From the IMG/VR virus record IMGVR_UViG_3300009095_000016, positions 2,271 through 66,270 of that record: a stretch of 64,000 nucleotides of DNA. One strand, given 5' to 3'. The notes below the pieces were generated by a model. The model was not told the DNA's origin, made no database searches, and saw only the letters and a list, made by a program, of their open reading frames with translations. Shown in pieces: positions 27,241 through 55,565 of the stretch. Numbering within the stretch: the first letter of the stretch is position 1; each line of letters begins with the position of its first letter. The DNA is from a virus. Made by a program: the position numbers and the translations under genes.

Positions 27241-28058
27241 GTGCCTCCGGGTCCGGTCGGTGATAGCAGCATCGTACGGGTGCCGCGCACTCGTAGCGGC
27301 AGGTCAGCGAGTCGCGAAGGTGCGAACTTCCTCCCAGGATGTCCGGTGCAGAGGTACGAACATTCTCCCAAGATGCCCGATTCATGGTGCGAAGTTGACA
27401 TGGACGCGTCGAGTCGTGCCTTAAATGAGGATTAACTCACCATAAGTCCGAATTGATACCCCAGGTGGGTATGCAGACGCTGACCTGCGGATTCTCTGTC
27501 CGATTCGCCCGATTGGAAGATCGAACCAGACTTGGAATCCGACCCATGGTCACCGGTGAGCGAGGGTCGAGAGTTGTCGGTCGGTATTCTTCCTGGTCAC
27601 GGGCGCCCCATGCTCACTGGAGGTCAAGGGGTGAAATGTCGACACGTACCCCTGGTCATCTGTGACCAGGGAGGGGTATCCATGACCGATTCGCCCTAGA
27701 TGTCATACTATTTTTTCGACATTCTCGTGCGGAAAAACGAACGAGTCGAACCCCCCACTTATGCCCTGACCTGCGGAACCACCCTCTCCTAAGAACAGAT
27801 ACAAAACCTCCGTCGTCTTGTATGTACCTGTACCCCCGTGGCCGCTCACGGCCGGGCTGCGCCCGCCCGCACGCGGCGGAGGAAGGACGGACTTCGCTTC
27901 GCTCAAAGGGGTGGGGGCTGGGGTTGTCGTCAGGGTGCGGCGCCAGGGTGGCTGAGCGCCGCGCCAGGGCTCGCGCAGGGGTCGGTGCGGGTGCACGGCC
28001 GCCGGAGGGTGGCTGAGGCCGTCAGGCGGCCTCTGGTGGCTTCGGGTCGCGGAGGGAC
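27241..28058. promoter_or_regulatory. divergent regulatory region
   Basis: No credible ORF and lower GC. It contains three CTGACCTGC copies (27299-27307 reversed, 27480, 27766) and a candidate ATGACC-N18-TACTAT promoter at 27682-27711. Confidence 0.5.
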
Positions 28059-50512: not shown

Positions 50513-50666
50513 ATGCCCCAGGTGCGGCGACGCGATCCCCGAAGAGAACGACGCGACCGGCGAGGGGCCCGTGTACTGGACGGTGACCGGAGAGCCGTTC
50601 TGCTCGATGGGGTGTGTGATCGGAACACACCGGAGCTGGCTCAAGGAAAACGGACGAAACGGCTGA
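50496..50666 (+). CDS. 56-aa TRASH/YacG-like zinc finger
   Basis: CPRCG-x23-PFCSMGC. Confidence 0.5.
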   Translation: MSTTTECPRCGDAIPEENDATGEGPVYWTVTGEPFCSMGCVIGTHRSWLKENGRNG

Positions 50667-50700
50667 AGGCCAAAAGGTTCTGACGGATGGACGACCTAAA

Positions 50701-52240
50701 CCCGGGACCCAAATTCAAATTCAATTCCGCAATTGGTTTTCTGCCGTGACAGAATTCCTGTCGAATTTCCTCCGAATTTCTCCGCTGATTTTCTTCGGCA
50801 TCGCTCACACTCGCACCCGCTTGCATTCCAGTGCATATCCCTTTGCATTGTGTGTGTATGTGTGTGTGCATTGACGTGAGATATAGAGCTGGTGGGTATT
50901 CCTTTGATTGCTGCTGAATACCTACCGACTTTCCCGCTCGATTCCCCGTGCTTTCTTTCGCTGCATTCCCCTTGCATTCATGTTCCGTGCATTCCTGCGA
51001 TTGCTGCGAATGGCACACACGAGAAACGCGAATGACAGGCACAGAATCGAGACCTATTCCCCGTGCTTTCCTTGCTTGCATTCCTCCGCACTTGCTTGCA
51101 TTCCTTGTGCTCTCTCGTGTGTGTATGTGTGGTGTGAATAGGCGAAACAAGTAATGCGGATATCGGAAACCGAGTGCGCGGAATTCCCTTGCATTCGAGT
51201 GCGTTGCATTCCGCGCGCTCCCCGCTTTCGCACCGCACCCGTTCACGTGCTCACCCATGGCGCGCACCACTCCCGCACCCGAGCAATCCGCACCGCGCGC
51301 ACTCCCGTTCCCTCACGTGCTCACGTGCTCCCGTACCGGGTGAGTGGCGAGACTCCCGAACCGTGCGCGACAGACAGCGTGCGCGCGTCCCTACGGGGCG
51401 AACGTGCGCAGGTGGGCACCCGCACCCGCACGCACGCTCCCGAGCGCTCACGCGCGCATACGCGCGTACGTGCTGGGCTGCTCATATGTGCTCACGTGTG
51501 CTCATTCGTGCAGGTCACACCCCCTGCCTTCGCATTCCTCCCACACCCAACCATTCACCCCACAATCGGACATAGCTACACACACAGCGCACTGTGAGGA
51601 CGTCCGGGAGACGCGCGCACGCTGCGCCGAGCATCACGTTTCCGCAGGTCAGACACCCTGTCGCTGCAAATTCCGACATCTGGGACACCCGCTCTGACCT
51701 GCGATTTCAACGAACTGTTGTACCGGTTTCGAGTGCGACAAAGCGGAGCGCTCCCGCTCACATAAGTAACTAAGAGTGGTTGACATCTACTTGCTTCTCA
51801 CTCTCTGTATATACGTCGCAGGTCGCAGCGCTGACGTGCGCGTACGTGTATGAACCGGACATGTGGGAGCTATGCCCACACATTCCCCTGCCTTTCTCGC
51901 ACTCGGAACCTTCCCCGATCATGAAATTTGGTACCGGTCTGTCCTAGTTTGACCATCGATGCTTGCTACACCTACCGATTTGCTCTGGCGTTTGCTCACT
52001 GTAAATTTCTGATCCATATGAGCTACATGTCCGTTTCGTGTCGTGTAGTCCGGTACGTTCTCCATGCCTCTGACCTGCACAAACAGATTCGTCTGTCGCA
52101 TCGTCGCAGGTACAAGAGCTGACAGAGACTTTTTTGAGAAAAATCTTGAACTCGTCGTTTCCGCAGGTCAGAGCACATTGTGAGCTGCGTCACACTCACA
52201 CCGTCGTGAACTCCGGTAGCGCTCTGACCTGCATGTTCCT
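50701..52240. repeat. lower-GC non-coding repeat zone (phased AATT tracts, GCATTC array, GTGCTCA, TGACCTGC)
   Basis: At least 9 same-strand GCATTC copies. 15-bp duplications at 50941/51056 and 51071/51091, and a 17-bp duplication at 51637/52156. Confidence 0.8.
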
Positions 52241-52279
52241 TGATCATCTGATGTTGTGTCAGCAACCACACACTTGCAA

Positions 52280-53390
52280 TGGCAGCCATGAATATGCTTG
52301 TCTCTGGGTGTCGCCACGACGCGGCGCCCGCTCCGGCGGGACGCGGCGCGGGGCGAGTGCAAGCGTCCGGGTTCTACCCCCGGACAACACGCCCCCGGGT
52401 GTTCCTCCGCTTAGCGCGGGGGGTGACCGGGGAGCGCGCATCCGAAGCACTGACGCACGGGAAACCGGCGACGTCGGGCGGGAAAGCGGCCAGCACGAAC
52501 GGGCGCGATGCGGCGGAACGGGAACGGTGACCAGCCGTAACGGTCACACTCCCGCGATGCGGTTCCTTGAGATTTTCGGAGCCTGGCGCGGCAACCCTGG
52601 GAAGGGAGCGCGGGCGCAAGCGGTAGCCGGTCGTCCTGATGTTTGGGACGGCATCCGGAAAAAACGGCACCCGATAGGCCACAACGGGGCGAGCGATTCA
52701 AACCCTTGTGCTGTCTGTCTTGACCCACCAGCGATTACCGGTCACTAGTCGGTCCCCTTACAGGCGCAACCTAAGCGCACGGGGGAACGGGAATACCGCG
52801 AAAACTGAGGTTGCGAACCACTACCGACGGGATGTCAGGTAGTAAGGCGGTCCGGACAGTGCAAGCGCGATAACCCCCGGCCGAATCACGTAAGGCGCGT
52901 GTGGGTCCCGATTCAATGCGGGGCCGGAGCGTCAGAACCAATCCGGGACACTCCCCGATTGGCCGGTTTGACGGTGTGACCTATCGGAACAACGCACCAT
53001 GCGGAAACGGGCATGGATGATCACGCACTCTTGACGGACGGGAAACCGTCGGGTGATGTGCGACCGAATGGCGGGATACCGGGGGTGTCGGAACCCTTGC
53101 CCGTGACGTGCGGTAGTCGCGTAGCGCTCCGCACATGTGTTGCAAGACAAGGGGGACGGATGTTCGTGCATTCGTCCCCCGGCGGGGAGCGGACACAACG
53201 ACGTGACGCGCGGGACGCACCGGAAACGGCGCGCACGCGACGATACGCGGTCCGCTCCCAACGTGCTTACCGTGCGGTGAGCACGAACGGACAACACAGT
53301 TCGCGTCCGCTTAGGCAACGGTAAAGGGCCGTGCAACCTATGACGGGTGAATTCTGTCCGTTTCGCCCTCCGCACGGAGGTTCGGGAAGG
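52280..53390 (+). ncRNA. candidate large structured ncRNA or structured early leader
   Basis: Contiguous stem-loops with GAAA tetraloops (53004, 53042, 53223), 10-12 bp stems with G-U pairs, and no credible ORF. Confidence 0.5.
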
Positions 53391-53399
53391 GTGTCAGCA

Positions 53400-53582
53400 A
53401 TGGTGATCAGGCTTGACAACGGCGGAACCGTGACAGTCACGGAATCCGGGAGCGTTGAATACCGGCGGGACCGCGAAACGGCATGGATGCCGGGACGCGG
53501 TAGCTACGCGGAAACGGTCGAATGGCTGGAATCCGTGACGTCCGGTAATGCGGGAGTTCTGTTCACGTCGCGTAAGGCGTGA
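53400..53582 (+). CDS. 60-aa hypothetical early protein
   Basis: GGAAGGG RBS; first gene after the structured tract. Confidence 0.55.
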   Translation: MVIRLDNGGTVTVTESGSVEYRRDRETAWMPGRGSYAETVEWLESVTSGNAGVLFTSRKA

Positions 53583-53633
53583 ACTCTGTCTGACGTCGCA
53601 CCGTTCGGGATGCGACGCGGGAAAGGGGAGATC

Positions 53634-55565
53634 ATGGGAAACACGTTCGTTGCGCTGAACATTGACGGTGACGCGCGGTTCTACGGTTTGGGAGTGCGGG
53701 GAGTCGGTCACGTCGTGCTCATCCCGTCCGGAATGCACAGTGACCCGCTTGCGTGCGAGTCGGTCGAAAAGGCGTGCGATGGTAAGCCGCTGGACAGTGC
53801 GCGACTCGCCGAAAAGTTCACTGGTGACAAGCGGTGCGCGCGGTGCGTCAAGTGGCTTGAGTCGGACGGCGGTAAGAGCGATCTTGAGGCCGCGCGACAG
53901 GACAAGTGGGACGACGAAAACGGGCCCGGTCTCGCGTCCATCATGGGTGAGTTCACCTTGATCACGCTTGACGACGTCGTGAACGTCACGGCGGACGGGA
54001 GCGACGCGCGGGAGGAATCCGCCCCGGTCCCGGCGGCGGAAATCGTCAAGGATGCGGCGGCGGCGGGTGTCAAGGCTCCGGCCCGTAAGGGCGGGAAGCG
54101 CGGGAAGCGCAAGAATTCCGCCCCGGTCGCGACGGGTGACGTGTGTGCGTCGACCGGTCTCACGTTCGCAGCGATGCGGGACGCGGTCGCGACATACTAC
54201 GCGAACGGCGGGGAGGTTCCGGCGGAAATTGCGACGCTCCCGGACCCGTACGTCAAGCGTCCCGCGCCGGACATGGCGGGAGCGGTGAGCGGTCCGGTTC
54301 CGGCGGTGCTCCCGTGCGACTACGCCGGGCCGGTGTCCAAGCTGAACATGGAGCGGACGCACGGAAAGTGCCCGGGATGCTCCGCGTACATCCCGCTGCT
54401 GCCGGAGCGGGAATCCAAGGAATCCGGCCCGAAGGTTTCCAAGATCGCTTGCGCGGGTGTCGGGAGCGCTCCGGCGCCCGGGACGCGCGTGCGGCGCGAT
54501 GACCACTCCGTAAGCGTCCCGGACGACTTTCAAGGGAAGACGTCCGCCCCGTGCGGGACGTGCGCCCGGGTGATCGCTGTCTCTCGGGACGGGGTCATGC
54601 GTCGGCACAACGGCGTGGAAGTACCGGAGAGTGCGGGAGAGTGCCCGGACAAAATCGGTACGCACAACGTCGGAGGCGCTGCCACTCCCGCACACAAGGG
54701 CCTGACGTCGCGCATGATCGAAACGGTGGAACACGGGAGCACCCCCGGGGACACCGCGACGGCTGACAAGCGGCGCGCGACGGAATCCCGCTGCGCCCGG
54801 TCGCGCAAGGTGATGAGCGGCCGCAAGACTCCCGGGACGGTCGAATGCCCGACGTGCGCGCGGCCGGTCGAACTCAAGGCCGTACAGCGGAAAAAGGGCA
54901 CGGTCTACGTGATTCCGGAGCACATCCGCGCGGGTGAGTCGGTCAAGCACATCGGGGGCGGCGACGTCCGGGACGTCACGCCCCGGGGTGAGGGTGCGGA
55001 CGTCGGCGCGACCGTGACGCGCGGGAAGGTGTCGGCGCGGCTGGCACTGTCCCGGGGGCACGGTTCGGTGGACGGCGCGGCGAACACGGGTTCTCAGAAC
55101 ATGGCGCCCGTGCAGCCGCGCGGGTGGCTCGGTAAGGCGGGAACGGGACAGCTTCCCGCGACCGTGCGGCCTGGGATTGACCCGGAGGTGACCGGCCGCG
55201 AGTGCGTGGCGTGCGGGGAACTCCCGGAGATCGCGCACAAGGGCAAGTCGCGCGGGTGGCGTCGTCGTCACTCCACGATCGTCGGAACCATCCTGCGGGA
55301 GCGCAAGGCGAAGCGGGATGCGGAGCGCGCGGCTGCAATCGCGCGGGGCGAGATTGCGTCGGCGCAGGAAAAGCGGGAGGGCCGTAAGGCCGCTTCGGTC
55401 GGATCGTTCGCCGAAGGGACGTGCGCGGGCGTCGTCTCTCACGAGCCGCGCCCGGAGTTCGCCCCGAAGGGTGAGCGGCGCCCGGCGGGATGGAAGGCGG
55501 GGGAGATCACCCGGGAGACGGCGCGTAAGGCTCTGGACGGGGTCGCGCGCAAGGCTGGCAAGTAA
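53634..55565 (+). CDS. 643-aa protein with repeated Zn-ribbon motifs
   Basis: CARC, CPGC, CGTC...H, CPTC...H and CVAC, with a GAAAGGGGAG RBS. Confidence 0.75.
   Translation: MGNTFVALNIDGDARFYGLGVRGVGHVVLIPSGMHSDPLACESVEKACDGKPLDSARLAEKFTGDKRCARCVKWLESDGGKSDLEAARQDKWDDENGPGLASIMGEFTLITLDDVVNVTADGSDAREESAPVPAAEIVKDAAAAGVKAPARKGGKRGKRKNSAPVATGDVCASTGLTFAAMRDAVATYYANGGEVPAEIATLPDPYVKRPAPDMAGAVSGPVPAVLPCDYAGPVSKLNMERTHGKCPGCSAYIPLLPERESKESGPKVSKIACAGVGSAPAPGTRVRRDDHSVSVPDDFQGKTSAPCGTCARVIAVSRDGVMRRHNGVEVPESAGECPDKIGTHNVGGAATPAHKGLTSRMIETVEHGSTPGDTATADKRRATESRCARSRKVMSGRKTPGTVECPTCARPVELKAVQRKKGTVYVIPEHIRAGESVKHIGGGDVRDVTPRGEGADVGATVTRGKVSARLALSRGHGSVDGAANTGSQNMAPVQPRGWLGKAGTGQLPATVRPGIDPEVTGRECVACGELPEIAHKGKSRGWRRRHSTIVGTILRERKAKRDAERAAAIARGEIASAQEKREGRKAASVGSFAEGTCAGVVSHEPRPEFAPKGERRPAGWKAGEITRETARKALDGVARKAGK

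Follow-up and report, generated by a model that had tools for sequence, protein, structure and literature searches.

The locus examined here raises the question of what occupies approximately 1.1 kb of DNA in which the annotators of related phage genomes placed no gene. The stretch of DNA analyzed (the window) comprises 64,000 nucleotides (nt) of a 68,980-base IMG/VR contig (IMGVR_UViG_3300009095_000016), and the element in question lies at window positions 52290 to 53395; an original prediction, made from the letters alone, had proposed a large structured RNA at this site. The element is non-coding with respect to protein, and its interpretation as an undescribed large structured noncoding RNA (ncRNA) of the plus strand is well supported by sequence comparison, since it shows covariation in approximately eight lineages, has non-coding statistics and has no match in Rfam. 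The best explanation overall, to which we assign a probability of roughly 50%, is that it specifies an ncRNA of 0.9 to 1.15 kb that is specific to cluster-BM-like jumbo siphophages of Streptomyces, is made early as a first product and acts as the folded RNA itself.

52290 to 53395, plus strand: the whole structured RNA element, 1,106 nt here (covariation, folding z = -4.0, non-coding).

The window is a piece of a cluster-BM siphophage of Streptomyces; it is 96 to 97% identical to the Streptomyces phages JustBecause and Kela and 70 to 78% identical to Frankenweenie, Satis, Kradal, Quantum and EhyElimayoE. These relatives are cluster-BM siphophages with prolate heads, defined ends and genomes of 184 to 200 kb (PMC6687918). 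In all seven GenBank records the locus is unannotated DNA ahead of the record's last gene(s), and the only call nearby is a small open reading frame (ORF) downstream of the element.

The absence of a gene call agrees with the statistics of the DNA. Codon-position GC content shows no frame signal from approximately 50650 to 53400, and the high-GC coding pattern starts at approximately 53600. Mismatches against the homologues fall almost evenly on the three phases in the element (83/70/75), compared with 46/39/115 in the neighboring gene, and approximately 25% of the indels in the element are multiples of three, compared with approximately 60% in the adjacent gene. The original observation holds in this respect. 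It could be argued that an unannotated protein is encoded, for example by an ORF at 52134 to 52748 (plus strand, 204 amino acids [aa]) or 52932 to 53375 (minus strand, 147 aa). Long open frames do exist, although they are no longer than chance provides in DNA of 62 to 66% GC; given the lack of codon-position bias and of 3-nt periodicity in the substitutions, an excess of frame-shifting indels (75%) and the seven annotations without a gene, we consider this reading extremely improbable.

Homologues were gathered in three ways: from GenBank phages, from IMG/VR by means of the neighboring 651-aa protein, and with a DNA pattern, consisting of two invariant boxes at the 5' edge, that was scanned in IMG/VR and in JGI metagenomes. 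The resulting set comprises 23 loci from approximately eight lineages, with pairwise identities of 53 to 80%. The element is 890 to 1,150 nt long across these loci and always lies between an invariant 16-mer (TTGCAATGGCAGCCAT) and the ribosome-binding site (RBS) of the small ORF; control region, element and genes follow one another in the same order in every lineage. Exactly one copy was present in each of five complete genomes, one of them a 260-kb relative. The latter contig (L013; IMGVR_UViG_3300049141_000098, 259,646 bp, classed among genomes with direct terminal repeats) shares the control boxes and has a single copy of the RNA, so that the element extends beyond the 184- to 200-kb cluster-BM isolates.

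The element can be divided into the following parts.

52312 to 52355, plus strand: 5' hairpin P1, 15 to 16 GC-rich pairs, nearly invariant in sequence, pairs kept at 94 to 100%.
52365 to 52436, plus strand: variable 5' hairpins, one at 52365 to 52385 and one at 52390 to 52436 that encloses 52403 to 52423.
52437 to 52632, plus strand: domain M1, defined by covariation.
52632 to 52990, plus strand: domains M2 and M3, a more variable middle with two architectural variants among the lineages.
52985 to 53129, plus strand: the universal core, six helices in 145 nt (covariance model R1).
53136 to 53261, plus strand: a variable, partly clade-specific insertion region (identity 0.17 to 0.5 and gaps 0.3 to 0.6 against other lineages).
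53262 to 53380, plus strand: the 3' domain, with a hairpin at 53262 to 53285, a long branched stem at 53285 to 53363 and a terminal hairpin, CCUCCG-CA-CGGAGG, at 53367 to 53380.

Compensatory change carries the argument for an RNA fold. Counts were compared with slid controls, in which the pairing partners were shifted by 1 to 3 columns on the same alignment; the alignments were sequence-based, and the pair counts are probably too low. For the whole element, RNAalifold on 15 sequences gave 301 pairs, 90% of them canonical and 103 compensatory, against 27 to 35 in the slid controls. The core was folded on its alignment to give covariance model R1, to which all loci were realigned, and R1 scores 121 to 170 bits in every lineage. 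Among 16 distinct core sequences, standard pairs fill 97.6% of 667 cells, and 16 of the 42 pairs are compensatory, compared with 0 to 6 in the slid controls; the observed values were reached by none of 500 shuffles. Several core pairs show three or four pair types, which points to several independent events. The comparison among homologues that had been suggested as a check on the original prediction thus came out in its favor, both for the core and for the element as a whole.

The remaining domains follow the same pattern. Domain M1 has 61 pairs, 90.1% canonical and 26 compensatory (5 to 9 slid), these figures being taken from a global-pair alignment because the default MAFFT alignment misplaced gaps and gave a poor consensus. 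Domain M2 (52632 to 52835) has 33 pairs, 91.5% canonical and 10 compensatory (2 to 5 slid), and domain M3 (52836 to 52990) also has 33, 82.3% canonical and 16 compensatory (3 to 6 slid). The 3' domain, taken as 53262 to 53412, has 27 to 43 pairs, 91% canonical, with 5 to 9 compensatory (9 of 43) against 1 to 2 in controls. Compensatory pairs in M1, M2, M3 and the 3' domain are thus 3- to 9-fold above controls; covariation in the variable insert is weak (6 of 26 pairs, 1 to 5 slid). Stems are rewritten with their pairing kept, while the loops and junctions AGCCGUAAYG, UGUCGGAA, CUUACAG and GGGUGAY are invariant.

The pairs also indicate the strand. Over the whole structure, G·U combinations outnumber A·C combinations 445 to 111 (approximately 4:1), compared with approximately 1 to 1.9:1 in slid controls; in M1 the counts are 119 and 17, and one core U·G pair is invariant in 16 of 16 distinct sequences. 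GNRA loops number 20 on the plus strand and 8 on the minus strand. Tolerance of G·U with avoidance of A·C suggests that selection acts on a single strand of plus sense and, together with the types of tetraloop, that this strand is RNA rather than DNA. The argument from G-U pairs and GNRA loops advanced in the original prediction is borne out by these counts, and each hairpin that it listed lies at the position given or no more than a few bases away.

Folding energy was less decisive. The minimum free energy of the whole element is -533 kcal/mol, compared with -493.5 ± 9.8 kcal/mol in dinucleotide shuffles (z = -4.0 on the plus strand); the reverse complement gave z = -2.5, and coding controls of equal length gave z values of 0, -1.5, -1.5 and -3.7. 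In 150-nt windows, outliers were confined to 52300 to 52450 (z of -2 to -2.7) and 53050 to 53275 (z of -3 to -5.3), and z was near 0 across 52450 to 52975. Energy alone is therefore weak evidence, in view of the unremarkable middle and the coding control at -3.7: the predicted excess over shuffles was obtained for the element as a whole but not for 52450 to 52975.

Several observations weigh against the ncRNA interpretation or limit its reach. About half of the element is unremarkable in local folding energy. Because only approximately eight lineages are available, part of the compensatory cells counted reflects shared descent and not independent change. In the global model, canonical pairs make up only 70 to 88% of the long-range helices, and for that reason we claim no overall fold. 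A scan for sigma-70 promoters and U-tailed terminators gave no promoter and one weak terminator-like site on the minus strand, fewer than in shuffles. The data fit an RNA acting in trans and a leader acting in cis alike, and the element is followed directly by an RBS and same-strand genes. Finally, two soil runs labelled metatranscriptomic yielded contigs over 52155 to 53227, but these derive from relatives, and at least one of the libraries contains DNA: in run X19, a contig ends at 51764 in Illumina adapter, approximately 20 nt from the genome end as mapped below (51742/51743), and an adapter-joined end so near a physical genome end implies that virion DNA was sequenced. The same contig end suggests that the terminus of that relative lies at approximately 51764.

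A further alternative is that no RNA is involved and that the stems are DNA-level palindromes, cruciforms or single-stranded DNA structures used in replication or ejection, or an alignment artifact of GC-rich sequence. Many of the stems fold on both strands, the metatranscriptomic contigs are open to the objection just given, and the flanking repeat region (50700 to 51805), which is probably functional as DNA, folds even further below shuffles than the element (z = -7.0). However, palindromes bound by proteins keep their sequence, whereas here the stems change with pairing kept and the loops stay invariant. The asymmetry between G·U and A·C and the invariant U·G speak for RNA, as do the multi-branched, nested architecture and the GNRA, UUCG and CUUG caps, which are typical of RNA; an artifact is also hard to reconcile with slid-partner controls that, on the same alignments, gave 3 to 9 times fewer compensatory pairs. 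We therefore regard the DNA-level reading as highly doubtful.

Within the structured element, conservation is unevenly distributed. The core includes a hairpin at 52997 to 53016, a nested stem at 53024 to 53062 with a conserved asymmetric internal loop (GGGUGAY), and a stem at 53064 to 53104 whose loop, UGUCGGAA, is invariant. It ends in a GC-rich hairpin at approximately 53108 to 53130; this strong hairpin ends the universally conserved part in every lineage. Domain M1 contains a module, UGACGC-hairpin-GACGUCGGG, whose loop is GAAA, GCAA, UUCG or CUUG depending on the lineage, together with a hairpin bearing the conserved loop AGCCGUAAYG, a hairpin GGUUCC...GGAGCC and a GCAA-capped stem at approximately 52614 to 52624. 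In M2 and M3 the conserved local helices are a stem with a CCGGAAA loop, the CUUACAG-hairpin module at 52749 to 52790 and the helix at 52820 to 52843. The emphasis that had been placed on the largest hairpins was misplaced, since the 12-bp and 10-bp stems lie in the least conserved part and conservation resides in 52985 to 53129 and in modules within 52437 to 52835. The 12-bp stem (53151 to 53180) is confined to the clade of the window, scoring 0/12 in all other clades; the alignment also shows the 10-bp stem (53185 to 53259), which encloses a GAAA hairpin, in L020 and L023, two relatives of clade B. The insertion region that holds both stems has the strongest local z (-5.3), on both strands.

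At the 5' end, hairpin P1 shows no covariation because its sequence does not vary. In the alignment, its opposed unpaired purines at 52323 and 52345 appear to change together (G,G in clades A to C; A,A in clades E to H) and could form an isosteric purine-purine pair or mark two coevolving protein sites; the sequence flanking them is also a direct repeat, GACGCRGCGC. The variable 5' hairpins occur in clades A to D, the first also in clade E, and are absent from the Satis, L008 and L013 lineages; their stems are rewritten with pairing retained even among phages that are 96% identical. The 3' domain is found in clades A to E and H and is absent from the Satis and L008 lineages. In it, CCGUGCGG (53270 to 53277, in the loop region of hairpin 53262 to 53285) is exactly complementary to CCGCACGG (53369 to 53376), so that the domain could close locally or over a longer range.

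Does the element belong to a known RNA family? At the gathering score, neither the window nor any of five divergent homologous loci matched an Rfam family. Over 51800 to 53900, no covariance-model match at E ≤ 10 was obtained for GOLLD (RF01998), ROOL (RF03087), OLE, HEARO or raiA, and Rfam models and ARAGORN gave no match at the element for group I or II introns, RNase P RNA, transfer-messenger RNA (tmRNA), self-cleaving ribozymes or riboswitches; flanking exons are absent, and the upstream side of the element is non-coding. ARAGORN detected no tRNA or tmRNA in the 64-kb window. The failure of the first inspection to recognize a tRNA, tmRNA, RNase P or intron core was thus sound. The matches that did appear at E ≤ 10 over 51800 to 53900 (RsmW, a snoRNA, a miRNA and a Brucella sRNA; E values of 1.6 to 8.5) are at chance level. 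A CsrA/Rsm sponge, considered because of the weak RsmW match and the many GGA loops, was dropped, since CsrA is not known from Actinobacteria. As an exact pattern, the core motif had 0 matches in 185,579 prokaryote genomes, and in IMG/VR it matched only the same BM-like contigs. We found no publication that describes the element, and the genome announcement does not mention it (PMC6687918).

These features make the element a good candidate for a new class among the large ornate ncRNAs of phages. GOLLD and ROOL are giant ornate RNAs of 0.6 to 0.8 kb that occur in phages, prophages and bacteria, are frequently adjacent to tRNA genes and assemble by themselves into RNA-only multimeric cages. The element resembles them in being large, multi-branched, supported by covariation, phage-borne, capped by GNRA-type loops and not associated with a protein domain. 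Unlike them, it is 0.9 to 1.15 kb long, has no match to their covariance models even at E ≤ 10, has no tRNA gene within the 64-kb window, and has a fixed place beside a terminal repeat and a control region; in addition, the hosts of GOLLD and ROOL are Firmicutes or marine, whereas the element is found in phages of high-GC Actinobacteria.

That fixed place can be described from a coordinate mapping onto the isolates. Window position 51742 corresponds to base 1 of JustBecause (and Kela) in reverse orientation, and position 51743 resumes at JustBecause base 183,238, which implies that the contig crosses joined genome ends with a single copy of the repeat. Direct terminal repeats of 1,043 bp in JustBecause and 1,049 bp in Satis have been reported (PMC6687918). 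The element starts approximately 550 nt to the inside of the right terminal repeat (1,043 bp), behind the operator-like region of low GC content and before the first genes of an operon that reads inward and is presumably early. The genes that flank the repeat on both sides point away from it, so that the joined ends appear to form a divergent control region with the element first on the rightward (window plus) side.

50700 to 51742, no strand assigned: direct terminal repeat in single copy at the joined genome ends (coordinate mapping; no coding GC pattern).
51743 to 52273, no strand assigned: conserved control region of low GC content (approximately 49 to 55%) upstream of the element (sequence comparison).
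Approximately 51807 to 51815: conserved AT-rich TGTATATAC within the control region.
52068 to 52078, 52163 to 52173 and 52222 to 52232: invariant TGACCTGC boxes in both orientations, with variants at 51644, 51692 and 51818.
Approximately 52190 to 52205: palindrome TGTGAsCTGCGTCACA within the control region.
52274 to 52289, plus strand: invariant 16-mer TTGCAATGGCAGCCAT, containing the palindrome ATGGC-A-GCCAT, the 5' boundary of the structured element.

The boxes, as GCAGGTCAGAG or CTCTGACCTGC, have nine matches in the window, compared with 2.1 expected, and cluster in two non-coding control regions (51644 to 52232 and 27299 to 27774). In 12 lineage representatives, three copies are invariant, and so is the box-containing 16-bp palindrome TGTGACCTGCGTCACA. 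Because the boxes recur at 27299 to 27774, they look like operators of a transcription regulator, and the boxes of both regions are probably operators of one such regulator.

This arrangement also bears on a minor rival, in which the RNA is linked to replication or packaging and either primes or opens an origin through an R-loop or helps to process the concatemer junction. On this view, the TGACCTGC boxes would serve as initiator sites and an A/T-rich stretch at approximately 52131 to 52147 as the unwinding element. The short distance from the terminal-repeat boundary and the adjoining low-GC region with its inverted boxes and A/T tract fit such a role, and there is a likeness to ColE1 RNA II and to the R-loop origin transcripts of T7 and T4, in that a long folded transcript would lie beside an A/T-rich, repeat-bearing region near a genome end. 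The RNA strand is G-rich (GC skew of +0.1), with a local change in the sign of the skew at approximately 51000 to 52300. However, the positive skew is not confined to the element but runs on through the downstream genes, none of the adjacent genes is a replication or terminase gene, and, in contrast to those origins, the boxes are repeated at a second control region, a better fit to a transcription regulator than to an origin protein. Taken together, these data make a replication or packaging role rather improbable.

The 16-mer at the 5' edge occurs once in the window. Its 14-nt core, GCAATGGCAGCCAT, is identical in 23 of 23 loci, but the pattern used to retrieve these loci contains that 14-mer. 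It is a candidate protein site, transcription start or processing signal, or RNA 5' end. Three other readings were rejected: a plus-strand ORF from the ATG at 52279 within the 16-mer, because its frame is broken by 1- to 2-nt indels between lineages and it lacks the codon GC pattern; a minus-strand ORF from 52289 to 52023, on the same grounds; and a sigma-54-like site, which is ruled out by spacing, Streptomyces also having no sigma-54 to our knowledge.

How, then, might the element act? We postulate that transcription proceeds rightward (window plus) from the control region when infection begins and yields the RNA as the first product of its unit, a placement suggested by the divergent control region and the hairpin-punctuated operon downstream, and that the RNA then works as a folded molecule: a scaffold for a ribonucleoprotein (RNP), a decoy, a ribozyme or a self-assembling ornate RNA like ROOL, GOLLD or OLE. 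It would probably be ended or released at a GC-rich hairpin, either the core-terminal one (approximately 53108 to 53130) or at the hairpin and RBS punctuation at 53367 to 53390. Action as a folded molecule is favored by the size and complexity of the element, its invariant unpaired motifs and its conservation above that of the neighboring genes; the GC hairpin that closes the core in every lineage and the dispensability of the 3' part in two lineages are further points for a stand-alone RNA over a plain leader. A narrower proposal, which we hold tentatively and at less than even odds, is that the element represents a new class of giant ornate RNA of approximately 1 kb that would be the first transcript from the genome end and would go beyond the part of an mRNA leader, acting independently as a ribozyme, in an RNA-only assembly or as the scaffold of a takeover RNP.

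There is a precedent in phage K (Kayvirus), a large phage with terminal repeats, which produces abundant early long noncoding RNAs (lncRNAs) of 0.6 to 1.2 kb (lnc001 and lnc002; PMC9241854). Those lncRNAs were defined by RNA-seq without covariation-supported structure, whereas the element is defined by covariation, and they have no sequence relation to it: a sequence search matched BM-like phages only.

The main rival is a structured 5' untranslated leader of the early operon that acts solely on its own transcript; it could shield the transcript from host RNases, pace or antiterminate RNA polymerase along the hairpin-studded operon, or control whether the small ORF and the 651-aa gene are translated. 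The element lies on the same strand as these genes and immediately adjoins the RBS, with no recognizable terminator between, and the fixed synteny of control region, element and genes is what a leader would show. The core-terminal and 3'-terminal hairpins resemble those that punctuate the downstream operon, the former having the same ACGGGAGCGC...GCGCUCC form as the intergenic hairpins, and the 8-nt complementarity of CCGUGCGG and CCGCACGG permits two alternative pairings near the RBS that may act as a switch. However, we found no conserved pairing that would sequester the RBS, and two lineages lack the RBS-proximal 3' domain but retain the rest. Conservation of the element also exceeds that of its putative target genes: in the non-redundant lineage set, identity of the core stays at approximately 70 to 85% in lineages between which the 651-aa protein falls to approximately 50% aa identity. 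Lastly, a length of 0.9 to 1.15 kb with approximately 300 pairs and invariant loops goes far beyond the leaders and antitermination RNAs known from bacteria or phages. On balance, a purely cis-acting leader is possible but unlikely.

The classical form of such a leader, a processive-antitermination RNA of the HK022 put type as envisaged in the original prediction, has no specific support here and is unlikely, in contrast to the other half of that prediction, a large plus-strand ncRNA, for which covariation, the non-coding statistics and the Rfam result all speak. Like HK022 put, EAR and the rRNA boxA leaders, the element is proximal to a presumed promoter and heads a hairpin-rich operon. The put RNA is approximately 70 nt long, with two stem-loops, and lies directly behind its promoter; the element is approximately 15 times longer (890 to 1,150 nt), with approximately 300 predicted pairs in dozens of helices, and no antitermination signature was identified in it. 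The early region of T7 likewise has a non-coding 5' segment before its first gene and hairpins between early genes, but the T7 leader is not known to form a conserved fold of 1 kb with several covarying domains, and the T7 early operon is punctuated by RNase III, whereas processing of the transcript considered here is something we only infer.

Structured RNA classes larger than approximately 500 nt are rare, and nearly all of those that are understood are ribozymes or RNP cores; the orphan large RNAs GOLLD, ROOL and OLE have recently revealed unexpected RNA-only architectures. The element would add to these a 1-kb class from high-GC actinophages with genomes of 185 to 260 kb and, if the folded-RNA interpretation is correct, a giant ornate RNA larger than GOLLD, ROOL or OLE. 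Its place as the first element behind the control region at the genome end suggests that its synthesis probably comes right at the beginning of infection. The proposal is directly testable, since isolates (JustBecause, Kela, Satis, Kradal, Frankenweenie, Quantum and EhyElimayoE) and a tractable host, S. lividans, exist. The present results also correct the annotation of approximately 2.9 kb of seemingly empty DNA at the ends of cluster-BM genomes.

Two genes follow the RNA.

53384 to 53582, plus strand: RBS GGGAAGG (53384 to 53390) and small ORF of 60 aa from the ATG at 53400 (Kela gp338), as annotated in relatives.
53610 to 55565, plus strand: orphan gene of 651 aa (Kela gp337), the first large gene behind the RNA.

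The neighboring proteins had no match in Pfam, PHROG or the ESM Atlas, and a single-sequence AlphaFold2 model of the 651-aa protein was of low confidence (mean pLDDT of 39.7).

The terminal repeat itself is non-coding, and its GC content falls to approximately 49% in part. It contains at least seven copies of a CCCTTGCATTCC-like direct repeat, especially at 50805 to 51212, and several long imperfect inverted repeats, which are candidate packaging or promoter arrays. At its inner edge lies a highly conserved block (51762 to 51815; ATAAGTAACTAAGAGTGGTTGAC ... CTCTGTATATAC) that includes an AT-rich TATATA, very unusual for a phage of 66% GC; this block could serve as an extended -10 promoter or as a signal for recognition of the end. 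In the downstream operon, the spacers between 55590 and 63190 contain GC-rich hairpins that are preceded (5') by (G)ACGGGAG or GTTCGGGA, followed (3') by TTCCAG and devoid of U-tails.

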